Assembly: GCF_022865125.1 (NCBI RefSeq)
Contig: NZ_CP094828.1
Location: forward strand, 2,379,219-2,411,218
Direction of reading: 5' to 3'
Length of the DNA: 32,000 nt
DNA from: Acuticoccus sp. I52.16.1
GTDB lineage: Bacteria; Pseudomonadota; Alphaproteobacteria; Rhizobiales; Amorphaceae
In this document: piece after piece, positions 6,255 to 25,561 of the stretch
How the letters are laid out: each line of letters begins with the position of its first letter
Position numbering within the stretch: the stretch's first letter is position 1
Notes under the pieces: generated by a model
Seen by the model: the letters and a program-made list of their open reading frames with translations, nothing else
Told to the model about the DNA's origin: nothing
The model's database searches: none
Position numbers and translations under genes: made by a program

Positions 6255-7268
6255 ATGGCCGCCATGGACATCTTCGAAGGCGATGCCTTCTCCATCATCG
6301 AGCTCACCCGCGCGCTCGACAACATTCCATTCAAGCCGGCGACGCTGTCCGGATCGGGGCTTTTCGCGGACCGCGGCGTGCGCTCCCGCACAGTCGTCAT
6401 CGAAAGCCGCGATGGCACGCTCTCGCTGATCCCGTTCTCCGAGCGCGGATCGGCCTACGAGCAGCAGGTCCCCGAGCGCCGTGACGTGCGCGCCTTCGTC
6501 TGCCGGCAGTTCAAGAAGCAGGACGTCATTTGGGCGTCGGAGATCCAGGGCATCCGCGCCTTTGGCTCCGACAGCGAGACCCAGCAGGTCCAGGGCGAGG
6601 TCGCACGCCGCCTTCGCCGCCTCCGGTCCGACGCCGAAGCGACTTTCGAGTACCACCTCCTGAACGGCATCCAGGGTCTGGTGAAGGATCCGAAGGACGC
6701 GTCGACGGTCGTCAACTACTTCACCGAGTTCGCGATCACGCCGTCGGCCGAGGTCGACTTCGATCTCGACAACGCGACGCCTGCCTCCGGTGCGCTCCGC
6801 AAAAAGTGCCAGTCGCTGATCGAGAGCGTCGAGGAGGGTCTCGGCGGGCTCGCCACCGGCTCCGTCATGCTGCGCGCCGAGTGCGGCTCGTCCTTCTTTG
6901 CGGATCTCGTGGCGCACAAGGAGGTGCGCGAGACCTACCTCAACACGGCGGCGGCTGCCGATCTGCGGAGCCGTGTTGCGGACGAGGTCAGCTTCGGCGG
7001 GATCACCTTCCGGCGCTACCGGGGCAACGCTGCTTTCGGCGTGCCGGCGGACAAGGCGTTCTTCTATCCCGAGGGCGTCGAGGGCCTGTTCGAGATCTAC
7101 TACGCCCCAGCCGACACGTTCGAGACCGTCAACACGCTCGGCCTGCCGCTCTACGCCCGAGCCATCCCCGATCGAGACCGCGACGAGTGGGTGCGGCTCG
7201 AGATCGAGAGCAACCCGCTCCCGATCTGCACCCGGCCGCAGGCGCTCCGGACCGGCAAGCGGACCTGA
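6255..7268 (+). CDS. Major capsid protein, lambda gpE family.
   Basis: 337 aa. The N-terminus MDIFEGDAFSIIELTRALDNIPFKP and the size match the gpE family, and the gene follows the decoration gene. Confidence 0.9.
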   Translation: MAAMDIFEGDAFSIIELTRALDNIPFKPATLSGSGLFADRGVRSRTVVIESRDGTLSLIPFSERGSAYEQQVPERRDVRAFVCRQFKKQDVIWASEIQGIRAFGSDSETQQVQGEVARRLRRLRSDAEATFEYHLLNGIQGLVKDPKDASTVVNYFTEFAITPSAEVDFDLDNATPASGALRKKCQSLIESVEEGLGGLATGSVMLRAECGSSFFADLVAHKEVRETYLNTAAAADLRSRVADEVSFGGITFRRYRGNAAFGVPADKAFFYPEGVEGLFEIYYAPADTFETVNTLGLPLYARAIPDRDRDEWVRLEIESNPLPICTRPQALRTGKRT

Positions 7269-7579
7269 TGAGCGCGCTCGCCGCCGCGTTCGACGCGATG
7301 TTCGCCGACCCCAACGTTGGGCGGGACGCTGTCTACACGCCCGCGGGCAGCGAGCCTGTCCCGGTGCGGATCGTGCCCCGCCGAGCCGACACGATCAGCG
7401 AGTTCGGCGAGGCGCGGGTGTGGTCGGAGACGGTCCGCCTCGACGTCCGCGTCAGCGCAGTCGCCGAGCCGCGTCCTGGCGACGGCTTCGAGATCGATGG
7501 CGAGGCCTTCGTCGTCCAGGGCGAGCCGGTCCGCGATCGCGAGCGGTTGGTCTGGACAATTGAGCTGCGGCCGGCATGA
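7268..7579 (+). CDS. Head-tail joining / head completion protein.
   Basis: 103 aa, MSALAAAFDAMFADPNVGRDAVYTP..FVVQGEPVRDRERLVW. The ATG at 7268 overlaps the capsid stop (TGATG) and the gene sits in the connector region. Confidence 0.65.
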   Translation: MSALAAAFDAMFADPNVGRDAVYTPAGSEPVPVRIVPRRADTISEFGEARVWSETVRLDVRVSAVAEPRPGDGFEIDGEAFVVQGEPVRDRERLVWTIELRPA

Positions 7580-8239
7580 AACTCGATCTCAAGGTCGTCC
7601 CCGATCTCGCGACGCTGATGGCGGAGGAGATCGAAGCGGCCGAACGCGCGGTCACCACCGGTGTGGGAGAGAGAGGTCGGCGTTCGGCTGAAGGGCAACT
7701 GGCGGGCGCAAGTCGTCGGGGCGGGTCTCGGCCCGCGGCTTGGCAACACGATCCGCAGCGAGCGGTATCCGAAGCAGGGCACGAGCATCCGAGCCGCCGC
7801 GCTCGTCTGGTCGAAGGCGCCTGTCATCGTCGGTGCCCACGACCGGGGCGCGACGATCCGGCCGAGGTCGGGCCTTTGGCTCGCCATACCGTTGCCCGTC
7901 GCGCGGGAGCGCATTCGGCGTGGGCCTCTGACACCGTCCATCTGGGAACGCAAGACGGGGACCAGCCTGCGCATTGTGCGGCGTCGATATGGGCCGAGCT
8001 TGCTCGTCGCGGATAATGTCCGGGTGACGAAGTCGGGACGGATCCGGTCGAACGTCACCCGGCGGAAGGACGGCACGACCTACAGCCGGCTCGCCGGCCG
8101 ATCGTCCGCCCCGATCTTCCTGTTGGTGCCGCAGGTTCGCCTGCGAAAGCGGTTGGATCTTGATCGCGACGCGCGAGCGGCCGAGGCGGCGCTGCCGGGC
8201 GCGATTGTCTCCAACTGGGTCGAGGGGCGGCTCAGCTGA
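7576..8239 (+). pseudogene. Conserved phage connector-region protein with its reading frame broken at a (GA)4 tract. The 5' part is 7576 to about 7666 and the 3' part is ORF 7661..8239.
   Basis: The ATG at 7576 overlaps the upstream stop (ATGA) and reads MKLDLKVVPDLATLMAEEIEAAERAVTTGV with high GC3. Beyond about 7666 the high-GC3 frame is offset by +1 (..EREVGVRLKGNWRAQVVGAGLGPRLGNTIRSERYPK..). The junction is GGGAGAGAGAGG at 7665-7676. From memory, similar single-ORF proteins are annotated DUF6441; I cannot verify that here. Confidence 0.5.
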
Positions 8240-8266
8240 CGATCACTATGGCCACCTCAGTCTCGT

Positions 8267-8281
8267 TGGCATATATTGCCA
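8267..8281. promoter_or_regulatory. Palindrome TGGCA-TATAT-TGCCA, probable operator/promoter element of the parDE module.
   Basis: Arms 8267-8271 and 8277-8281 are reverse complements around an AT-only spacer. The site lies in the only real intergenic gap (8240-8300) of this part of the late operon, 20 nt upstream of the parD start. Confidence 0.45.
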
Positions 8282-8300
8282 TCCAAGTTGGAGGCTTCCC

Positions 8301-8558
8301 ATGGTGACCCGCAACGTCGTGCTGACCGAAACGCAGTCCGCCCTTCTCGACAGGTTGATTGATGAGGGGCGGTACCAGAACGCGAGCGAGGCGATGCGGG
8401 CAGGTTTGCGTCTCCTCGAGCGCGAGGAAGCCGAAATGGGTGAGTTGCGAGCCCGAGTCGAGCGCGGTCTCGACGAGGCGCGCCGCGGCGATCTCGCCGA
8501 AGGCTCTGGCGAAGATGCGGTCCGCAGAGCGTTCGCCCGCGCCCGCTCCGAGGCGTGA
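8301..8558 (+). CDS. parD: Type II antitoxin, ParD family (ribbon-helix-helix).
   Basis: 85 aa, MVTRNVVLTETQSALLDRLIDEGRYQNASEAMRAGLRLLEREEAE.., the classic ParD/COG3609 pattern. GGAGG at 8290-8294. The stop overlaps the toxin start (GTGA). Confidence 0.85.
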   Translation: MVTRNVVLTETQSALLDRLIDEGRYQNASEAMRAGLRLLEREEAEMGELRARVERGLDEARRGDLAEGSGEDAVRRAFARARSEA

Positions 8559-8896
8559 CCACGAAGCCGTGGCGGCTGACGCGGCAGGCGGAGGCCTCGC
8601 TGACCGACATTGCTCGGTGGACGATCGACACCTTCGGAACCCGCCAGGCCGACGCGTACGAGGCCGATCTCATCGACCGCTGCACCGCGATCGCGAACGG
8701 CTTGGCGGTGTCACAGAGCTGCAGGGCGCTGATCGATCTTAACCTGCCCGAAGACCTGCGCTTCGCACGCGCCGGCCAACACTTCATCGTCTTCGTCGAG
8801 GACCCCGAGCAGGTGATCATCCTCGATTTCCTCCACGCCCGCAGTGACCTTCCCGCGAGGCTGGAGCGCTTGAACACTCGCTCCAGCGAGCGCTGA
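8555..8896 (+). CDS. parE: Type II toxin, RelE/ParE family.
   Basis: 113 aa, ..WRLTRQAEASLTDIARWTIDTFGTRQADAYEADLIDRC..HFIVFVEDPEQVIILDFLHARSDL, which is a ParE-like pattern. The GTG start overlaps the parD stop. Confidence 0.85.
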   Translation: MTTKPWRLTRQAEASLTDIARWTIDTFGTRQADAYEADLIDRCTAIANGLAVSQSCRALIDLNLPEDLRFARAGQHFIVFVEDPEQVIILDFLHARSDLPARLERLNTRSSER

Positions 8897-8913
8897 TCCC
8901 TTCAAGGAACCTC

Positions 8914-9345
8914 GTGTCGGCCCGTGAACACATCCTGCAGGCGCTGCTCGGCGCCCTGCAAACGATCTCGTCCGCCGCCGCGCTCCGCGGCGAAGTCCTG
9001 CCAGAGCGGGTGCCGCCGGACGACGGGCTGCTGATCCTCCGAGATGGCGATCCGGGCGACCCCGACGTGACGCTTTCGCCGCGGACCTACCACTACGAGC
9101 ACCGGGCGGAGGTCGAGGCTATCGTCGCGCCGCGCCAGCCGACCGACCGGGACGAAGCGCTCGACGATCTTCTCACCGCCCTCGGCACCGCGATCGCGGC
9201 GGACCGTACCCTCGGCGGCCTCTGCGACTGGATCGAGGCGAGCGCGCCGCGGCCGGTCGATCTCCCGGTCGAAGGCGCGCCGACGATGAAGGCGGCGATC
9301 GTCCCGATCACGCTGACCTACTCCACGGCCGACCCGCTCGGCTGA
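8914..9345 (+). CDS. Tail completion / tail terminator-like protein (gpU/DUF3168-like; family uncertain).
   Basis: 143 aa located directly upstream of the tail tube gene. GTG start at 8914 with AAGGAA upstream. The product call rests on position and size only. Confidence 0.5.
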   Translation: MSAREHILQALLGALQTISSAAALRGEVLPERVPPDDGLLILRDGDPGDPDVTLSPRTYHYEHRAEVEAIVAPRQPTDRDEALDDLLTALGTAIAADRTLGGLCDWIEASAPRPVDLPVEGAPTMKAAIVPITLTYSTADPLG

Positions 9346-9370
9346 ACCCTTTCGCACAAGGACAAACCCT

Positions 9371-10746: not shown

Positions 10747-10973
10747 ACCTGCCGCAGACGATCGAGGGCTGGCAGGTGTGGGATCTGGCCCAGCGCATGG
10801 GCGGGCAGGTTCGTGTCGTACCCCGCGGCGTCGTCGGCTGGGACATGACCGCGGCGCTCGCCATGGCTGAAGCGCTCGGCGTCAGCGCGCTTGCCGCCGC
10901 TGAGATGCTGCCGGCGCTGGAGGCCGCAGCGGTGACCGCCATCACCAAGCAGATCGGATCGGAGAATGGCTGA
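10309..10973 (+). CDS. Tail assembly chaperone frameshift fusion, GT-like, made by a -1 slip at 10647-10653.
   Basis: The -1 frame reads ..KRLAALAEWHFGGGQEYCDACPSPCQECPGRLNLPQTIEGWQVWDLAQRMGG...ITKQIGSENG and ends at 10973, overlapping the tape measure start at 10966. This geometry matches lambda G/GT. Confidence 0.5.
10647..10653 (+). promoter_or_regulatory. Candidate -1 programmed frameshift heptamer A_AAA_AAC.
   Basis: A run of seven A (10646-10652) in a very GC-rich genome, in X_XXY_YYZ phase with the chaperone frame. The -1 frame is open and has high GC3 from here to 10973. Confidence 0.55.
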
Positions 10974-13143
10974 AAAGCGCGTCAGCGTCCGCCTCGCTGC
11001 CGTCGGCGGACGCCAGGTGAAGGCCGAGCTGCAGGGCATCGGCGACACTGGCGGCAAGGCATTCGGCCGGCTCTCGCGCGAGATGGAGGCGGCGAATGCG
11101 CGAATGGCGTCGTTCGCCCGGGCGGCCAAAGTCGGTCTCACCGCAGCCGCGGCAGGGGCGACGGCCTCGCTCGGGCTCATCGTGCGGTCCGCCGCTGAAA
11201 GCGGCGCGCAGCTTCGCCAGTTCGTGCAGGTCGCTAACACCACGCCCGAGGGCTTCCAGCGTTGGTCGGGTGCCGCACGGACGGTCGGCATCGAGCAGGA
11301 GAAGCTCGCCGACATCCTGAAGGACGTGAACGACCGCGTCGGCGACTTCCTCCAGACTGGCGGTGGGCCGATGGCCGACTTCTTCGAGAAGGTCGCGCCG
11401 AAGGTGGGCGTCACCGCCGATCAGTTCGCGCGCCTGTCCGGTCCCGAGGCGCTGCAGCTCTACGTCGACACCTTGAAGCGTGCCGGCCTGTCGCAGCAGG
11501 AGATGACGTTCCACCTCGAGGCGATGGCCTCGGACGCGACGCGCCTTCTGCCGCTGCTGCGCGACGGCGGTGCGGAGATGCAGCGGCTCGGCGATCGCGC
11601 AACCGATCTGGGAGCCGTGCTCGATGCCGACGCGCTCAAGGCATTGCAGCGGACCGAGGTCGTACTCGACACGATGTCGCTGGTGATGGAGGGGCTGCGC
11701 AACCGGATCGCCGTCGTGGCGGCCCCGGCGGTCGAAGCGCTCGCTTCGGCCTTCGTCTCGCTGGCGTCGGCTGGCGGCATCGTTCGCACCGCCATCGAGA
11801 CCATCATCGGCAACCTCGGCCGGCTCGCGACGTACGCCGCCACGGCTGCAGCGTTCTTCGCCGGACGCTGGGTCGCGGGAATGGTGGCGGCTGCGGTATC
11901 AGTGCGCGGCTTGGCTACGGCACTGGTCGTCCTCAGTGGCGCGCTGATCCGGACCGGCATCGGCGCGCTGATCGTCGGGGCTGGCGAGCTGATCTACCAT
12001 TTCGGGCGCCTCGTCAGCAGCACGGGCGGCTTCGGCAACGCGCTATCGCTGCTCGGCGATGTGGCGACCGAGGTGTGGGAGCGCATCAAGGCGGGTGGCC
12101 GCGCGCTGGCGCTCGCGCTTCAGTCGGTCTGGGCGTGGATCGAGGCGGGCTGGCTCTCCGTCATGGAGCGGATCCAGAAGAGCTGGGCCGAGCTGCTGCA
12201 CCGCCTGGCCCGCGGGCTCGACGGGCTCCCCGGGTTCGACGAGACGACGCTGCGGGTCCATGGCGCCGCAGTCATGGCGACGTCGGGCTTCTACGAGCTC
12301 GAGCTCGCCGTCGGCGAGGCAGACAAGCGCGCAAAGGACTTGGCAGCATCCGCGTCGGAAGCCGCCAAGGCCGCCACCGCGCCGCTGACGTCCCTGGCAG
12401 CACTCGGACAGACCGCCGAGGCGGCCGGCGCCGACAGCGAGGCGTCGCTGGAGCGCGCGGCGAAGGCAGCGGAGAACCTGAAGGATGGCGTGGCACAGAC
12501 CGCCAAAGCGGCGAAGACCGCAAAGCGCGAGGTCGCCGAAACCGCCGAGGTGGCGAAGACCGGCTGGAGCCAAGCGCGGGACGCGCTGACCGACTACGCC
12601 AAGCAGGCCATGGCGCTAGGCAGACAAGTCGGCGATACGCTGGTCAGCGCGTTCCGTAGCGCCGAGGAGGCGTTCGCCGAGTTCGTTCGGACGGGCAAGA
12701 TCGACTTCCGCAGCCTCGTCAGCTCGATGCTCGTCGACATGGCGAAGGTGGCGGCGCAGCGGTTCATCTTCGGGCCGCTCTCGAATGCGCTCTCGGCCGG
12801 TATCGGTCGCCTCGGTTCGGTGTTCGCCGGCGTTTTCCACGACGGTGGTATCGTTGGACGTCCGGGACCGATGCGACTCGCGCCGTCCGCTGCGTTCGCT
12901 GGAGCGCATCGGTATCACGCCGGCGGTGTCGCCGGGCTGCGGCCCGACGAGATGCCGGCGATCTTGCAGCGCGGAGAGCGAGTGCTTTCGCGTCGCGAGA
13001 CGGCGGCGCTCGATCGGGAGCGTGGAGCGGGCGGCGTGAACGTCACCATTGTCGCCAAAGACGCGGAGAGCTTCCGCCAGTCGCGCACGCAGGTCGCCGC
13101 GGACGTCGCTCGCGCGGTGGCGCTTGGACGGCGGGGGCTTTGA
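10966..13143 (+). CDS. Tail tape measure protein.
   Basis: 725 aa. The N-terminal region (LADILKDVNDRVGDFLQTGGGPMADFF..LEAMASDATRLLPLL) is lambda-H-like. There are central hydrophobic segments and an Ala/Lys/Glu-rich helical stretch. The C-terminus is FHDGGIVG..YHAGGVAGLRPDEMPAILQRGERVL. Confidence 0.9.
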   Translation: MAEKRVSVRLAAVGGRQVKAELQGIGDTGGKAFGRLSREMEAANARMASFARAAKVGLTAAAAGATASLGLIVRSAAESGAQLRQFVQVANTTPEGFQRWSGAARTVGIEQEKLADILKDVNDRVGDFLQTGGGPMADFFEKVAPKVGVTADQFARLSGPEALQLYVDTLKRAGLSQQEMTFHLEAMASDATRLLPLLRDGGAEMQRLGDRATDLGAVLDADALKALQRTEVVLDTMSLVMEGLRNRIAVVAAPAVEALASAFVSLASAGGIVRTAIETIIGNLGRLATYAATAAAFFAGRWVAGMVAAAVSVRGLATALVVLSGALIRTGIGALIVGAGELIYHFGRLVSSTGGFGNALSLLGDVATEVWERIKAGGRALALALQSVWAWIEAGWLSVMERIQKSWAELLHRLARGLDGLPGFDETTLRVHGAAVMATSGFYELELAVGEADKRAKDLAASASEAAKAATAPLTSLAALGQTAEAAGADSEASLERAAKAAENLKDGVAQTAKAAKTAKREVAETAEVAKTGWSQARDALTDYAKQAMALGRQVGDTLVSAFRSAEEAFAEFVRTGKIDFRSLVSSMLVDMAKVAAQRFIFGPLSNALSAGIGRLGSVFAGVFHDGGIVGRPGPMRLAPSAAFAGAHRYHAGGVAGLRPDEMPAILQRGERVLSRRETAALDRERGAGGVNVTIVAKDAESFRQSRTQVAADVARAVALGRRGL

Positions 13144-20551: not shown

Positions 20552-20839
20552 ATGCCGACGACACGCACACCCGACCACGTCACGCTGCCGAAACCTGAGT
20601 TCGAGCAGCTTCTCGAAACCGCCGCGGAGAAGGGCGCACGAAAAGCGCTCGCTGATGTTGGTCTCGAAGGCGAGACAGCCGCGGCGGACGTTCGAGATCT
20701 CCGCTCGCTCCTCGACGCGATCAAGGTCGTCCGCAGCACCGCCCTTCAGACTGCGGTGCATTTGATCGTCACCGCGATCCTTCTCCTCATGGTCCTCGGC
20801 GCTGCCATCAAGCTGAAGCTGTTCGGCGACGGATCATGA
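20552..20839 (+). CDS. Small protein with a single C-terminal transmembrane helix; holin candidate.
   Basis: 95 aa with a soluble helical N-terminal part and then LQTAVHLIVTAILLLMVLGAAIKLKLF. It is the last plus-strand late gene before the inverted module. The function is inferred from topology and position only. Confidence 0.5.
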   Translation: MPTTRTPDHVTLPKPEFEQLLETAAEKGARKALADVGLEGETAAADVRDLRSLLDAIKVVRSTALQTAVHLIVTAILLLMVLGAAIKLKLFGDGS

Positions 20840-20848
20840 GAAGGCGCC

Positions 20849-21751
20849 CTATGCGTCGTCGTCTGCGGCGTTCGCGATGGAGGCGTCCTTCGCGATGCGG
20901 CGGAACTCGGCGAGGATTTCGGGATGGTGACGCTCGAGATGGCGCTGAACCGCGCCGTTGCGCAGGAGAGCGGCGATGTACCCGCGGGCGATCACGAGGT
21001 TGAGGTGGTCGGGGCCGTAGGAGGCTTCCACCGATCGGATCTCCCGCTGCAGGCGCTCGAGCTCTGCCTCCATGCGTGCGGTCTGCTCCGGGCTGAGGGC
21101 CTTGGTCACGGGCTTCGACGCGTCGATGAGCTGGGCCTTCGGCGTCGCCGCCAGCAGCGCCTTCGCGTAGGCCGACGAAAAGGTGTTCATCGCCACCATA
21201 AGTTCGGCGACCTCGATCTGGCGCAGCGGCTTCATCTTCTTCAGGATCCGGAACGTCGCGAGCGGGCATTGCCGGTCCTTCAGAAGATCGGTGACCTCCG
21301 GCGCGATGCCGTCGAGAAGCTTGCGCCGCTCGCGGATGCGGCTGATGTCGACGTCGAGTGCCCGGGCGATGCGTTCCTCAGGCACGCCGCGCTCGATGGC
21401 CTTCAGGATCATCCGGTGCTCCTGCACGGTGGCGAGCCGGCTGATCCTCTTGTTGTAGGTAAAGGCTTCGTCGTCGGTCGCGATCAGGCAAGGGGCTTCG
21501 GGCAATCCGCTCGCGAGAAGGGCTTCCCGCCGCACGTGTCCGTCGAGGAGCAGGAACCCATTCGCACCCTGCCGGGAGACGACCAACGGCTCGATAAGCC
21601 CAATCTCGCGGATGGAGACGGCGATCTGGCGGAACTTGCGGCTGGCGCGGGTGGTCGGCGAGATCTGCTTCGTCGGGAGGATCCGGGCGAGCTCAATCGA
21701 CTGGACCTCGCCTTCGAAGGCGGTCCTGACACCGGGCGTCTGCGCGCTCAC
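20849..21751 (-). CDS. ParB/RepB-like protein 2 (ParB N-terminal domain, HTH, RepB-like C-terminal region).
   Basis: 300 aa: ..IAVSIREIGLIEPLVVSRQ..FLLLDGHVRREALLASG.. is ParB box-like, and RIARALDVDISRIRERRKLL is HTH-like. The GTG start at 21751 overlaps the upstream stop (GTGA). Confidence 0.8.
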   Translation of the reverse strand: MSAQTPGVRTAFEGEVQSIELARILPTKQISPTTRASRKFRQIAVSIREIGLIEPLVVSRQGANGFLLLDGHVRREALLASGLPEAPCLIATDDEAFTYNKRISRLATVQEHRMILKAIERGVPEERIARALDVDISRIRERRKLLDGIAPEVTDLLKDRQCPLATFRILKKMKPLRQIEVAELMVAMNTFSSAYAKALLAATPKAQLIDASKPVTKALSPEQTARMEAELERLQREIRSVEASYGPDHLNLVIARGYIAALLRNGAVQRHLERHHPEILAEFRRIAKDASIANAADDDA

Positions 21752-22650
21752 GTCTCTTCGCCGGAGACGAGTGCCGCCAGGGGGCGCGGCAGTGTGTCGA
21801 GCGACTCGGCCCTCAGCAGCGTGACGAAGTGAGCGTCCACATAAAGCGTCCTCAGCGCCGTCACGAGGAACAGGAGGCGGTTGCGGGTGACCTCGGCGCG
21901 CTTGACGATGAGGCGCTGCCGGTCGGCCTCCGCCTCGTAGGCGCGCACGAGGGCGTCGGGCGTCACCCGTCGGCGTGTCGGCTCGGGGTCGAAGTTGCGG
22001 TAGGCTTTGCCGTGGCGCTGCCGGCGTTCGAGGAGGCGCTTTGCCGCGAGCAGCTTGCGGCCGCGCAGCGTGCCCGTCTCGTAGGCCTGTGCGAGCGCGG
22101 CCTGCGCCCCCTCGTGATTGACGCCGGCGATGGTGACGGCGACGTTGAGCGGGATCTGCCCGGTCTCGACCGCGACGATCAGCCGGTCCTCGCCGGCCGT
22201 CAGCAAAGTGCCGATCATCTGGACGTACGTGGGCGAGAGTCCGGTCTTCGAGGCGATCTCGCCGTCGGCGTAGCCGCGCTCGCGCAGGGCGCCGATCTCG
22301 CGCAGCAGTTCCAGCGGGCGGTGCTGGCGCCGCGCGATGTTCTCGACCACCGAGCGAAGCATCCGATCCTCCTCGCCGACATCTTCGATGAGAGCGGGGA
22401 TGTCGCGCTCGCCGAGCGCCAGAAAGGCCTCAATCCGGCCCTGGCCGCAGACGAGTTCATAGGCCTTGCCGTCCGAGCGACCCGCGGCTCGGGTGACGGT
22501 GACTGGACGCTTGAGGCCGACTTTCGCGATGGAGTCGACGAGTTGCTCGAAGCTCGCCTTCGAGCGCTCGCGCGGGTTTTCGACGGCGATGGCGGCAATG
22601 GGAATACGCTCGATCCGGACCGTCTCGCCCTCGCCGTCGGTCGTCACCAC
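21748..22650 (-). CDS. ParB/RepB-like protein 1 (ParB N-terminal domain plus HTH).
   Basis: 300 aa starting at GTG 22650 (or 22647) inside GTGGTGA, which also holds the recombinase stop; GAGG lies 7 nt upstream. Motifs are LVDSIAKVGLKRPVTV, YELVCGQGRIEAFLALG and EIASKTGLSPTYVQ. The tracked ORF 21748..23499 is over-extended into the recombinase gene. Confidence 0.8.
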   Translation of the reverse strand: MVTTDGEGETVRIERIPIAAIAVENPRERSKASFEQLVDSIAKVGLKRPVTVTRAAGRSDGKAYELVCGQGRIEAFLALGERDIPALIEDVGEEDRMLRSVVENIARRQHRPLELLREIGALRERGYADGEIASKTGLSPTYVQMIGTLLTAGEDRLIVAVETGQIPLNVAVTIAGVNHEGAQAALAQAYETGTLRGRKLLAAKRLLERRQRHGKAYRNFDPEPTRRRVTPDALVRAYEAEADRQRLIVKRAEVTRNRLLFLVTALRTLYVDAHFVTLLRAESLDTLPRPLAALVSGEET

Positions 22651-24221
22651 GGTGCGACCTCGGCGAGCTTGGCCCGCTCCGCCATGGCGAAGAACGTGTC
22701 GAGCGTGTCGAACCGATAGGCGTCGAGCGCAAGGCCGTTGTGTTCGGCGAGCTTGAGGGACGTGTGGTTCAGCTCGGGAAGCGGGAGGAGATAGTAGTCG
22801 AGGGCGGCGTCGTTGCCGGCGGTCATGCGAACGGCGACGGTGATGTCGGGGGCGAGACCGGTGTCGAAGCGCAACTTCCAGCGGCGGCGTCCGGCGTTCG
22901 TGGTGGTACACCGCGCCACCACCACCGACGCCTTGAACTCGCCGTTGATGGTGAGGAGATCTGTCGCCGGGTCGCGGGCGACGTGTCCGCCGAGGGCTTC
23001 GATGCCGGCGATGGTTCCCGCCACCGCGTCGTGATGGAAGACGCGGAGCGCGCGGTTGATCTCCACGTAGCGGAAGTCGCGGTCCGGCGTGAAGCCGACG
23101 AGACCGTAGGCCCGCAAAAGGCTCCCGAAGCGATGGCGGTAGGCCCCGGCCGAGGGCATCCCTTCGCTCTCGTCGATGACGACGCCGGAGAGATAGCCGT
23201 GACGCGCAAAGAGCTGGCGCAGGCGGTCGATCATTTCGGCGTCCGAGAAGCGGCGGTTGCGCTCGGCGATGATCCCCTGCGCCGTGAAGAAGGTTCTGGC
23301 ATCGACGACGGGATCGAAGGCACCATCGGCGCGGATCCACATGTCGGACGCGTTTACCACCCGCGTCTTCTTCAGTTTGAAGGAGACGCGGTTGTAGACG
23401 TTGTTGCCGATGTACTTCTCGTTCGTGAGGATGCCGTGGACGACACCGCGCGTGAAGGGGCGGCCGAGGTCGGTGAGAAGGCCCTTCGTGTTGAGCCAAG
23501 CCGCGATCCGGCTCTCGCTCTCGCCGTCCTCCACGAAACGGCGATAGATCTCGCGGACGGTGGCGACCTCGTCGTCAGGGCCTGGAGCAAGGACCACTCG
23601 GTCCGTCTGAAGGCTCTTGTGCTCGCCGAGGCTGAGCGTTCCCTTGAGGGTGCCATCCTCCGCGAGAAGCAGCCGGCGCAGGCCATAGCCGGCCGTGCCA
23701 CCTTGACGAAAACCCTTCTCGATCAGCCGGCACTGTCCGGCGAACACCTTCGCCGAGAGTTCGCGGCTGTACTCGCCCGCCATGGCGCGCTTCACGCCCT
23801 TGACGATGGTGGCGACGGGGCTCCCGTCGTTCGCGAACTGCTCGGCGCAGTATTGGACTTCGATGTTTGCCCGGCGGCAGATGTATTCGTAGTAGGCCGA
23901 CTCGTCCGCGTCCTGGAACCGGCCCCAACGGCTGACATCGTAGACGAGGATGACCTCGAAGTCGGCGGTCCCGGCCTCGACGTCTCGGATCAGACGGCCA
24001 AGGCCATCGCGACCCTCGATCCTGAGACCGCTCTTCCCGGCGTCCTCGTAGGTGCGGACGATCCTCATGCCATGCGTCTCGGCGTAGGCGCCTATGGCCT
24101 CGGCCTGGTTCTCTGTGGAGTATCGCTGGTGTTCGGTCGACATGCGGACATACTGGGCGGCCCGCCGCTGCGGGCTGGCTGAAGCAACAGTCTCGTCTCC
24201 GAAGGCATCCGCCGTCGACAC
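22644..24221 (-). CDS. Large serine recombinase (resolvase-type catalytic domain plus recombinase domain, with a non-canonical C-terminal region).
   Basis: Catalytic region AAQYVRMSTEHQ..NQ.., VYDVSRWGR and GEYSRELS. The ORF is open to a TTG at 24308. The GTG at 24221 has AAGGAG 9 nt upstream and is my preferred start. Confidence 0.88.
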   Translation of the reverse strand: MSTADAFGDETVASASPQRRAAQYVRMSTEHQRYSTENQAEAIGAYAETHGMRIVRTYEDAGKSGLRIEGRDGLGRLIRDVEAGTADFEVILVYDVSRWGRFQDADESAYYEYICRRANIEVQYCAEQFANDGSPVATIVKGVKRAMAGEYSRELSAKVFAGQCRLIEKGFRQGGTAGYGLRRLLLAEDGTLKGTLSLGEHKSLQTDRVVLAPGPDDEVATVREIYRRFVEDGESESRIAAWLNTKGLLTDLGRPFTRGVVHGILTNEKYIGNNVYNRVSFKLKKTRVVNASDMWIRADGAFDPVVDARTFFTAQGIIAERNRRFSDAEMIDRLRQLFARHGYLSGVVIDESEGMPSAGAYRHRFGSLLRAYGLVGFTPDRDFRYVEINRALRVFHHDAVAGTIAGIEALGGHVARDPATDLLTINGEFKASVVVARCTTTNAGRRRWKLRFDTGLAPDITVAVRMTAGNDAALDYYLLPLPELNHTSLKLAEHNGLALDAYRFDTLDTFFAMAERAKLAEVAPW

Positions 24222-24434
24222 GCAATCGTTCTCCTTGTTTCGCTTGGCGGCGCTTGCGGCAGTCCGCTGTTCGGACGTGACGTTGGAGAGGCGCTCGCCG
24301 GAAGTCAACTCGAATACATTGTGATTACATCGTTCGCGCGAGGTTATCGGCGATAATGGCTTACGCTTCCTCAGATAATATTATTGCGTAGATGCCATTC
24401 GCTTCGGCCATCCGCAGAAAACCACCGTTCAACC

Positions 24435-24465
24435 GAGCCCGCCTTGTGCGGGCTCTTTTCGTTTT
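24435..24465 (+). terminator. Intrinsic terminator-like hairpin directly upstream of the endolysin ribosome-binding site.
   Basis: GAGCCCGC (24435-24442), loop CTTGT, GCGGGCTC (24448-24455), then TTTTCGTTTT. The GGAGG at 24466-24470 and the ATG at 24476 follow at once. Confidence 0.6.
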
Positions 24466-24475
24466 GGAGGTTCCC

Positions 24476-25162
24476 ATGACGCCCAAGTGGTATCAGCTCG
24501 CCACCGCGGAGCTGGGCCAACAGGAGATTCGTGGCGCGAAGCACAACCCGCGGATCGTCAGCTACCAGCAGGCGACGGGACTGCGCGCGACCGACGACGA
24601 GACCGCCTGGTGCGGGTCGTTCGTCGCGTGGTGTCTCCGCGAAGCCGGTGTTCGCTACGACGTTGCCCGTGCCGCCGCGGCGCGCTCCTGGTTGAGCTGG
24701 GGGCGCAAGCTGGACAAGCCGACCATCGGGTGCGTCGTCGTCTTCTGGCGCGGCAAACGCGACGGCTGGCAGGGCCATGTCGGCTTCTACGCCGGGCGCG
24801 CGAAGAACGGCGACATTCTCGTCCTCGGCGGCAACCAGGGCGACGCGGTCAGCATCCGTCCATACTCGGCGAGCCAGCTTCTCGGCTACCGCTGGCCGAG
24901 CGACGTCGCACTGCCGCCCGACATCGAGCCGCTGGCAAAGTCCGGGGTCGTGCAGGGCACGAGCATCGCCGTCGCCAGCGGCGGGGCGATCGTCGCCGAG
25001 AACCTTCCCGCGCTGGTCACCGAACTCGAGCGGGCGGATCGCCACATCCAGGCGGTGACCATCTTCGGCATCGCCATCGGTGCGCTGATCGTCGCCGGTG
25101 GCGGGTATGCCCTGTGGCGGAGGGTGAAGGCGGCTCGGCAGCTCGGCGAGGAGGTCACGTGA
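24476..25162 (+). CDS. Peptidoglycan hydrolase (endolysin candidate), CHAP/NlpC-P60-like 'TIGR02594-type' domain with a C-terminal transmembrane helix.
   Basis: MTPKWYQLATAELGQQEIRGAKHNPRIV.Y.., a Cys context (ETAWCGSFVAWCL) and a His context (WQGHVGFY). The C-terminal helix is VTIFGIAIGALIVAGGGYALW. GGAGG lies 6 nt upstream of the ATG at 24476. Confidence 0.78.
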   Translation: MTPKWYQLATAELGQQEIRGAKHNPRIVSYQQATGLRATDDETAWCGSFVAWCLREAGVRYDVARAAAARSWLSWGRKLDKPTIGCVVVFWRGKRDGWQGHVGFYAGRAKNGDILVLGGNQGDAVSIRPYSASQLLGYRWPSDVALPPDIEPLAKSGVVQGTSIAVASGGAIVAENLPALVTELERADRHIQAVTIFGIAIGALIVAGGGYALWRRVKAARQLGEEVT

Positions 25163-25404
25163 TGGGATGGCTTCTCGCAATGCCGTGGTTGCGGCGGCTC
25201 GGGATGTACGCCGCCGCTGCCGGCGCATTCCTCGCGGCGCTTGCCGCGCTCCGTCGCTCCGGCGAGCGCAGCGGACGTCTCAAGGAAGAACTCGAACAGG
25301 AACGGGAGGTGTCCGATGCGCGTAAGCGGATGCTCGATGCGTCGCGCGATCGTCCTCGCAGGCGTGATCATCTCGCTCGGCGCATGCGTGACGGCGAATT
25401 CTAA
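25162..25404 (+). CDS. i-spanin-like protein (N-terminal TM helix plus charged coiled region).
   Basis: 80 aa, MGWLLAMPWLRRLGMYAAAAGAFLAALAAL then RSGERSGRLKEELEQEREVSDARKRMLDAS.. The ATG overlaps the endolysin stop (TGATG). It is the internal part of tracked ORF 24487..25404. Confidence 0.5.
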   Translation: MGWLLAMPWLRRLGMYAAAAGAFLAALAALRRSGERSGRLKEELEQEREVSDARKRMLDASRDRPRRRDHLARRMRDGEF

Positions 25405-25561
25405 GCGGGCTGGAATCGCATGCGTGCCGGTGCCGGCTTACCAGCAGGATTTCTTGGATCGCGCTGCAGGTGAGGTCGAGCGCCTGGATGAGGGCTCGAC
25501 AGTCGTCCAAATGCTTGGGGACTACGCATTGATGCGGGCGCAGGCGGATGCTTGCCGCTGA
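25316..25561 (+). CDS. o-spanin-like lipoprotein, overlapping the 3' end of the i-spanin-like gene in another frame.
   Basis: GGGAGG lies 6 nt upstream of the ATG at 25316. The signal peptide MRVSGCSMRRAIVLAGVIISLGAC has a lipobox (L-G-A-C). The mature part is about 57 aa. It is the internal part of tracked ORF 25241..25561. Confidence 0.55.
   Translation: MRVSGCSMRRAIVLAGVIISLGACVTANSKRAGIACVPVPAYQQDFLDRAAGEVERLDEGSTVVQMLGDYALMRAQADACR

Follow-up and report, generated by a model that had tools for sequence, protein, structure and literature searches.

A serine recombinase co-encoded with two ParB-like proteins in an alphaproteobacterial prophage: a candidate accessory recombination cassette

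What does an inverted operon consisting of a large serine recombinase gene and two ParB-like genes do in the late region of a prophage? The question is raised by a 32,000-nucleotide stretch of contig NZ_CP094828.1 of the alphaproteobacterium Acuticoccus sp. I52.16.1 (positions 2,379,219 to 2,411,218; hereafter, the window, to which all coordinates without a locus number refer). The recombinase gene is denoted here REC, and the first and second ParB-like genes PBA and PBB, respectively. A preliminary description of this locus left it undecided whether the two ParB-like proteins are partners of a phage recombinase, such as site-selection or directionality factors, or whether the phage carries the trio as a self-contained cassette, and asked whether the ordered trio recurs, also outside prophages. 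The trio is not a plasmid partition system and, in all likelihood, not the integrase of the prophage itself. With roughly even confidence, we consider it a semi-autonomous, selfish accessory recombination cassette in which the ParB-like proteins serve as the DNA-binding partners of REC.

Recurrence of the trio and its place in the prophage

Homologues of the trio proteins are numerous: more than 5400 clusters of PBB at 90% identity (E <= 1e-10), 280 clusters of PBB at 50% identity (E <= 1e-30), and at least 8000 REC candidates, every one with E <= 1e-10. Genome loci (80) were fetched with the PBB profile alone and viral contigs with an RNA motif described below. The order REC-PBA-PBB, with constant spacing, was found in nearly all of the 80 genome loci where the contig allows it, including loci on plasmids and on chromosomes far from phage genes. 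The exceptions are L049 and L052, which are one and the same sequence and hold a truncated copy, and L026, where the copy is interrupted. At L026:7871-9339, a ~1.2 kb insert (about 8140-9367 by blastn) lies near the REC/PBA junction, and PBA residues 1-84 are missing by tblastn. The translational coupling that the preliminary description saw in the window turned out to be a conserved feature of the family: of 98 loci, 77 offer an overlapping start where REC meets PBA, and 71 offer one where PBA meets PBB. The annotated plasmid copies of pAtC58, Methylibium RPME01, and Marinibacterium pLA6_006 have the same 4- or 7-nt overlaps. Judged from this conservation, the order of the trio is not due to chance, and the three genes are inherited and exchanged as one unit.

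The hosts of the trio belong to many alphaproteobacterial orders and to Beta- and Gammaproteobacteria; the trio also occurs in metagenome-assembled genomes labelled Verrucomicrobiales, Nitrospinaceae, Acidobacteria, and Gemmatimonadetes and in one human-gut contig of 38.9% GC. In PLSDB, 117 plasmid or chromid records, mostly conjugative, contain PBB matches. At about 90% of the genome loci, no phage gene is found within 10 kb. A full module is also present in L149 (NZ_CP110863.1), a 13.5 kb record labelled as a Lactiplantibacillus plantarum plasmid with a GC content of 64.7%, which almost certainly reflects contamination or the wrong assignment of a contig.

The neighbours of the trio, called heuristically by GC content at third codon positions (GC3), are diverse: 142 flanking open reading frames (ORFs) at 41 loci matched 136 Pfam families, of which the commonest, Fic and ParE, occurred three times each. 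No ParA family is among the 25 most frequent of these families that were listed. The lack of a ParA-type ATPase gene in the window, reported before, was confirmed in three ways: tblastn with a Soj query gave nothing better than E = 0.5, a deviant Walker A motif was found in no frame, and the large ORFs scanned were all phage structural or host genes. A partition locus was therefore rejected, as no ParA was found. The reservation that homologues of the ParB-like genes might normally be linked to ParA and not to recombinases was not borne out either, the linkage being to the recombinase.

In an all-against-all BLASTN comparison, unrelated genomes were similar only within a block of ~3.8-4.3 kb that surrounds the trio. 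In loci of the Roseobacter group, the left end of this unit, TGGC(G/T)GTGC...CCAGTCTC, is nucleotide-identical in at least 10 different flanks; the right end is situated close to TAAGCGCCATTATGTTAAAT. Two Agrobacterium plasmids share a 3.9 kb unit at 96.9% identity, in surroundings that differ between them, and the copy in L003, from a plasmid, has 84.7% identity over 4 kb to that in L071, from a prophage. These alignments show a discrete unit that is horizontally exchanged between chromosomes, plasmids, and prophages. Targeting of tRNA genes was considered and rejected, such genes being near a minority of loci, at variable distances. In two different genomes, the same foreign sequence …GTAGTGGTTCAGATGTGATCTGACAGTTGGCCG… adjoins the right end of the module (L077:~11102-11160 and L047:~11071-11130); this flank may be the end of another mobile element.

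The window contains the late region of a prophage. Genes for a gpA-type terminase, a lambda-type portal, a ClpP-like protease, and capsid protein E come first, followed by those for the tail tube, the tape measure, distal tail proteins like those of gene transfer agents (GTA; a DUF2460 protein, the hub, and a 1319-aa GTA_TIM protein), and a DUF2793 fibre, and then by DUF6127, the trio, the gene of a CHAP endolysin, and a pair of Rz-like genes. From ~25.8 kb onwards the genes are those of the host, for a histidine kinase, a response regulator, and a MatE protein. By its gene content, the prophage is of the temperate siphovirus type, with a lambda-like head and a GTA-like tail; identity as a GTA cluster was rejected, given the four lambda-like head genes named first. 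The assignment of the trio to the prophage late region thus stands, the flanking genes being those of DUF6127 and the CHAP endolysin.

In two related, trio-free viral contigs, L084 and L085, the gene order is alike, and the gap between DUF6127 and CHAP is ~70 nt long, holding a matching hairpin and a ribosome-binding site (RBS). In the window, this hairpin and RBS stand right of the trio, at 24435-24475. Because DUF6127 and CHAP are adjacent in L084 and L085, the trio is an insertion of ~3.56 kb (about 20840-24405) that takes in REC, PBA, PBB, and ~185 bp upstream of them, and the hairpin is a phage intergenic element left on its right side. DUF6127 and PBB abut in a like manner in L141 and L142, with 2-3 nt between the genes. 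The closest relatives of the window trio (L141-L145; 81-85% amino acid identity) occupy the same slot in the same stripped form. In this lineage, dN/dS is 0.13-0.19 at dS 0.7-0.9 for each of REC, PBA, and PBB, so that all three genes are under purifying selection and functional without the small gene and the RNA element that accompany the trio elsewhere (see below). The insertion is old and has been maintained by selection, and it appears to be ancestral in the phage lineage of the window. In one of the relatives, PBA is split into two ORFs (L142:1890-2785), by a frameshift or a sequencing error.

The scan of IMG/VR for the RNA motif yielded 52 viral contigs, 19 with the full trio and 17 with a partial one cut by contig ends; half of the contigs (26 of 52) carry structural genes of the phage family of the window. 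In the usual prophage layout, the late operon and the lysis genes are followed by RNA<-PBB<-PBA<-REC and then by small->Fic->. Within this phage family, the module is found in at least three slots, namely, after the second Rz-like gene, after CHAP, and between DUF6127 and CHAP, the last of which is used by the window lineage only.

The three proteins and the wider module

The preliminary identification of REC as a large serine recombinase is supported by Pfam matches to Resolvase (PF00239, 78.6 bits) and Recombinase (PF07508, 70.7 bits) and by the invariant serine nucleophile motif. Across 38 sequences of the family, M27, S28, T29, and Q32 within RMSTEHQ, as well as R98/R101, are invariant. 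Sequence matches in the PDB include 3guv, 3bvp, and 2mhc, and REC aligns with residues 189-299 of the SPbeta integrase over the Recombinase domain. With all catalytic hallmarks present, REC is predicted to be a catalytically intact large serine recombinase. In canonical large serine recombinases, a zinc-ribbon/coiled-coil module binds the att half-sites and controls synapsis. REC appears to be without this module: its matches to the SPbeta, Bxb1, and phiC31 integrases end at about residue 330 (the Foldseek alignment spans ~331-335 columns), Pfam detected no zinc-ribbon/coiled-coil module (PF13408) at E <= 0.01, and the C-terminal 200 aa contain a single Cys. The C-terminal ~190 aa have no structural match, and the AlphaFold2 (AF2) model is poor past residue ~330, with a mean predicted local distance difference test (pLDDT) score of 64.7. 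The AF2 models of both REC and PBB are of modest confidence.

PBA consists of a ParB N-terminal domain, a helix-turn-helix (HTH) domain, and a helical C-terminus. It matches ParB_N (PF02195, 38.4 bits) and RepB (PF07506, 68.7 bits) in Pfam and aligns with Thermus thermophilus Spo0J (1vz0) over residues 13-194, through the N-terminal and HTH domains (E = 1e-14). The boxes NPRxR, GLKRPITV, GQGR (replacing GERR), and ENxARRQ are conserved in 78 family members. PBB matches RepB (PF07506) with 164 bits and ParB_N with 24.1 bits, below the cut-off of 26.3. Among 82 members of its family, the motif LLDGHxR and a long DDEAFTYNKRISRLATIQEHKMI stretch are invariant, DGHxR takes the place of Box II, and there is no ENxxR (ENLQRE) box. 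The PBB model (mean pLDDT 69.6; N-terminal domain 82-89) resembles Noc, ParB-CDP/CTPgS, and KorB over ~200 residues (Foldseek E = 8e-7), which supports a ParB-type fold with an HTH despite the sub-threshold ParB_N score. The ParB-like domain calls made initially for both proteins are accordingly correct, and the motifs CGQGRIEAF and DGHVRREAL are present as claimed. The canonical CTP boxes GERR (Box II) and ENLQRE (Box III) were found in neither the PBA nor the PBB sequences.

The Pfam label RepB is misleading and no guide to function, because the models specific to the RepB proteins of repABC plasmids are not matched at their cut-offs: with TIGR03454, PBA scores 30.3 bits against a cut-off of 201.5 and PBB gives no match, and with PRK13866 the score is 17 bits against 522. 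Neither RepA nor RepC is present in the annotated neighbourhoods examined. Homologues are named 'plasmid partitioning protein RepB C-terminal domain-containing protein' by NCBI, and in PHROGs both PBA and PBB fall into families without known function.

The trio is the core of a larger conserved unit that also comprises a small gene, often a Fic gene, and an RNA-like element 3' of PBB, of which the window copy has none. The small gene, of ~115-135 aa, was found in 53 of 83 trio loci (tblastn with one product, E <= 1e-3), where it lies upstream of REC and points away from it. Its product matches no Pfam family and only one PHROG, which has no known function; it may be a regulator. The small gene was not found in the window or its closest relatives. 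In prophage copies, the Fic gene is usually located downstream of the small gene and co-directional with it, and Fic also adjoins the Agrobacterium copies; two neighbouring ORFs match the SoFic model of PADLOC. Fic may be an optional fifth component or a separate defence gene.

In 70 of 83 trio loci, a GC-rich element of ~125 nt follows directly on the 3' side of PBB, on the strand of the operon; it is also present in 51 of the 52 viral contigs, themselves gathered by this motif. When co-resident modules are compared, this element is more conserved in sequence than the protein genes. Its structure comprises five helices, with 98% pairing over 41 sequences and with 10 pairs that show compensatory changes; the observed values were not reached in any of 500 shuffles, and slid controls pair at 33-44%. 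The many G-U pairs imply selection on one strand, as RNA or single-stranded DNA. A search of Rfam 15 gave no match at gathering thresholds for four sources, nor did the element taken by itself have a match at E <= 10. It is a candidate for a new RNA family. In the window and its closest relatives, it was detected neither by nhmmer nor by a covariance model. In L029:10928-16082, direct copies of the element (at 10928 and 15961) bracket an ORF for a 1162-aa helicase-like protein (weak ResIII match) and a PIN-domain gene, which look like captured defence-type cargo; the helicase-like ORF is also present in the 7.8 kb variants L028, L031, L032, and L036.

Competing explanations of the cassette

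Given that REC lacks the usual module for DNA binding and synapsis and is always co-made with two ParB-type proteins, the three proteins most likely act as one complex. In the interpretation that we prefer, PBA, which is near-canonical, and the divergent PBB would be co-translated and probably form a complex with REC, supplying DNA-site recognition or clamping and thereby controlling when and where REC recombines. In full-length relatives, the small divergent gene, likely a regulator, and the structured 3' RNA would add further control, and the trio of the window would be a stripped-down copy of this widespread, horizontally exchanged accessory recombination module. In the phage, the cassette would be a 'moron', whose recombination serves its own spread or retention rather than phage partition or integration. 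The preliminary alternative of a self-contained cassette in the phage holds: the trio is an insertion relative to related phages, and it is present in the same order on plasmids and in chromosomes far from phage genes.

Several observations weigh against a selfish recombination cassette. The physical interaction of REC, PBA, and PBB is deduced from linkage and coupling; the linkage counts start from the PBB side, the loci having been ascertained via PBB or the RNA; and that REC has neither a zinc ribbon nor a coiled coil is judged from Pfam, the Cys count, and a low-confidence model. Terminal inverted or direct repeats, target duplications, and an att core were sought in four full modules, with only chance-level, non-recurring matches. 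A nucleotide-precise empty site was not found in the comparisons of pAtC58, Ensifer adhaerens E-60, and viral loci: the pAtC58 flanks in PLSDB form a variable island of toxin-antitoxin (TA), Abi, and Fic genes in which modules are swapped with no clean empty site, in E. adhaerens E-60 the right flank alone is collinear with other strains, and trio-free and trio-bearing viral loci share at most one short stretch (~720 bp at 80.7% identity, between L197 and L085). An active transposon is expected to leave identical copies in one genome, and co-resident copies are divergent, with 64-72% nucleotide identity across the protein-coding genes, and never identical. Finally, the window copy is conserved even though it has no termini, small gene, or RNA, and the trio therefore seems to be useful beyond moving itself.

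This last point leads to a role in exclusion, defence, or addiction, which we regard as possible although unlikely. Under this explanation, the ParB-like proteins would load onto or mark incoming or competing DNA, and REC would break, trap, or rearrange it, thereby shielding the lysogen or plasmid host against other mobile elements. The module occupies accessory hotspots. After the lysis genes, at the corresponding prophage end, the trio-free relatives hold HEPN_Swt1 with DUF499 or Vsr with an AspBHI-N/Mrr-like endonuclease (L085:8172-11519 and L084:8178-9891), from which it follows that this end is an accessory-gene hotspot. Plasmid copies lie among AbiEii, Fic, ParDE, VapC, HNH, and dnd-like methyltransferase genes, and Fic, including the SoFic matches, recurs more than any other neighbour and often shares the orientation of the small gene. 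Purifying selection on the stripped, apparently immobile window copy and the divergence of co-resident copies into variants point in the same direction. However, no model for the trio exists in PADLOC-DB v2, where the ParB_N regions gave weak MTase_II matches (E = 3e-3 and 3e-4) and REC none; chromosomal copies mostly have ordinary genes next to them, few of which gave defence matches; and a left terminus that stays sharp to the nucleotide in many surroundings would sooner be expected of a mobile element. In addition, we know of no defence system with a serine recombinase effector.

A more speculative possibility, which we rate as doubtful, is that the full module is a ribonucleoprotein recombination machine in which REC is targeted or gated by ParB-fold NTP-switch proteins and the structured RNA, constituting a new type of mobile element or of immunity against mobile elements. 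The window would then hold the minimal, protein-only core of the full module.

It is improbable that REC is the integrase of the prophage, with the ParB-like pair acting as site-selection or directionality factors in integration and excision. REC does match the PHROG 'integrase' family phrog_95 and serine integrase structures, the module lies near the prophage end and is convergent with the late operon, like lambda int, and in many related prophages it directly follows the lysis genes. The left part of the prophage is outside the window, so that integrase content was judged on the right part only. A survey of Paracoccus prophages, which includes a cluster of serine-recombinase prophages without identifiable att sites (PMC6536676), also counts in favor of an integrase. 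Nevertheless, the related phages L084 and L085 are trio-free, and a tyrosine integrase stands directly beside the module, complete in L159 (12751-13941; Arm-DNA-bind_3 and Phage_integrase) and as a fragment in L190 (68-568). Most trio loci are far from phage genes and many are on plasmids, and PBB occurs in only 1 of 50,697 deposited phage records. In the window, moreover, the trio lies within the lysis cassette, at a distance of 1.3 kb from the end of the prophage, and does not have the terminal sequences of other copies. The directionality or site-selection role offered in the preliminary description is weakened by the trio-free phages, the tyrosine integrase of L159, and the predominance of phage-free loci.

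Replicon maintenance, with REC as a multimer-resolution recombinase next to ParA-independent centromere-binding or silencing proteins in a layout like RP4 parCBA, is the least probable explanation: the plasmid and chromid records with PBB, the ParB-type folds with HTH, and the resolvase-type catalytic domain of REC are compatible with it, but ParA was found neither in the window nor among the families listed for the neighbouring ORFs, the RepB equivalog TIGR03454 is not matched, no centromere-like repeat arrays were seen, and many copies lie among chromosomal housekeeping genes or in prophages, where neither partition nor the resolution of dimers is required.

Large serine recombinases (phiC31 Int, Bxb1 Int, SPbeta SprA/YokA, TnpX, and CcrA/B) share with REC the resolvase and Recombinase domains, over ~330 residues, as well as mobile contexts; they differ in that the C-terminal ~190 aa of REC are unmatched, with no zinc ribbon/coiled coil detected, and in that REC is co-encoded with two ParB-like proteins instead of a small directionality factor. 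REC scores far below the cut-offs of the CcrB and IS607 equivalog models. With ParB/Spo0J, Noc, and KorB, PBA and PBB share the N-terminal ParB/Srx-type domain and the HTH domain, whereas, in contrast to the ParB-CTPase family, no ParA partner or parS-like array was found and the two occur as coupled paralogues that follow a recombinase gene. Orphan ParB-fold proteins were surveyed in a 2025 study, which includes ParB-RepB fusions and does not mention recombinases (bioRxiv 10.1101/2025.10.10.680097). RepB of repABC plasmids has the PF07506 match in common with PBA and PBB, which lack its equivalog scores and its RepA/RepC neighbours.

IS607-type elements are compact units of the serine recombinase TnpA, TnpB, and a 3' omega-RNA. 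Their likeness to the full modules is architectural only (a recombinase, accessory genes, and a conserved 3' structured RNA): the accessory proteins have the ParB fold, not that of RuvC, REC scores 32.7 bits with NF033518 against a cut-off of 110, no guide-like variable segment was identified, and the window copy has no RNA. Like phage morons and accessory hotspots (the lambda b region, P2/P4), the trio is inserted between late genes in the opposite orientation, presumably with a promoter of its own, and the equivalent positions of related phages hold restriction, HEPN, and Fic genes. Unlike morons, it carries as cargo a recombinase complex and no recognized defence or virulence gene, and the cassette is at least as common outside phages.

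Full-text literature searching found no description of the trio, which is a serine-recombinase module with unprecedented partners. Serine recombinases are major genome-engineering tools, and their site choice and directionality are thought to lie in the zinc-ribbon/coiled-coil module and small factors. If the interpretation as an accessory recombination cassette is correct, a large clade of REC proteins has replaced the zinc-ribbon module by two ParB-fold partners, a new control of recombination, and ParB-fold NTP switches have a job beyond segregation, nucleoid occlusion, and transcriptional silencing. Thousands of genes called 'RepB C-terminal domain-containing' or prophage 'integrase' are probably mis-described, which can mislead the calling of prophage boundaries and att sites.

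Gene boundaries and further features

The features of the window and the examples of accessory components in other loci are collected in Table 1.

Table 1. Features of the trio, its surroundings in the window, and accessory components at other loci
Feature	Coordinates	Strand	Remarks
REC, large serine recombinase	22644..24221	-	525 aa from probable start GTG 24221; ORF open to TTG 24308
PBA, ParB-like protein A	21748..22650	-	alternative start GTG 22647
PBB, ParB-like protein B	20849..21751	-	divergent paralogue
Non-coding region upstream of REC	24222..24405	-	~185 bp, locally AT-rich, part of the inserted cassette
DUF6127 small membrane protein	20552..20839	+	Pfam DUF6127 and phrog_10540; last gene before the insertion
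Left junction of the insertion	20840..20848		9 nt from DUF6127 stop TGA 20837-20839 to PBB stop 20849-20851 (-)
Hairpin gagcccgc-cttgt-gcgggctc, then T run	24435..24459	+	upstream of endolysin RBS
CHAP-domain endolysin	24476..25162	+	Pfam CHAP; start ATG 24476 (MTPKWYQ)
Rz-like genes	25159-25404 and 25241-25561		after CHAP endolysin; PHROG Rz-like match
Small gene, examples	L029:7050-7436; L001:3083-3490; L070:~7000-7389	-	
Fic/DOC genes beside the module	L071:285-1511; L172:12424-13650; L188:11811-13010; L170:1-1257; L194:219-1475; L190:2297-3448; L044:420-2018; L148:2381-3991		
Structured 3' element, examples	L055:10928-11049; L029:10928-11049; L070:10903-11024		

The DUF6127 protein is possibly holin-like. 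For the endolysin, alignment with L084 and L085 and the position of the RBS place the start at the ATG listed in Table 1, not at 24392, where the longest ORF begins; the 5' extension of that ORF overlaps the insertion junction.

The three minus-strand ORFs overlap at their stop and start codons as initially described. The REC stop codon, TGA 22646-22644, is embedded in GTGGTGA, so that PBA can start at GTG 22650 (7-nt overlap with REC, 903 nt) or at GTG 22647 (4-nt overlap, 900 nt); the PBA stop codon, TGA 21750-21748, overlaps the PBB start codon, GTG 21751-21749, and PBB is 903 nt long.

The upstream extent of REC has to be revised. The earlier delineation, up to 24308, follows the open frame, and that TTG is probably too far upstream. 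The start is instead set at GTG 24221, because this codon is preceded by AAGGAG at a spacing of 9 nt, is kept in the closest relatives, and gives 525 aa, the modal length of the REC family; we consider it the probable start.

The promoter and operator of the trio are presumably located within the non-coding region upstream of REC. Its AT-rich part (24340-24390) contains a palindrome, TTATCGGCGATAA, and a near-palindrome, GATAATATTATT, which have GATAA/TTATC half-sites in common; neither is conserved in L141 or L144, and both could be candidate operator sites. A common operator was rejected, the regions upstream of REC being too divergent across clades. The motif GGAAT-N7-ATTCC upstream of REC is confined to the Roseobacter-group loci tested (L029, L055, and L042), with a weak look-alike in the window. 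In the phage-borne relatives with 81-85% identity, the region upstream of REC is partly conserved.

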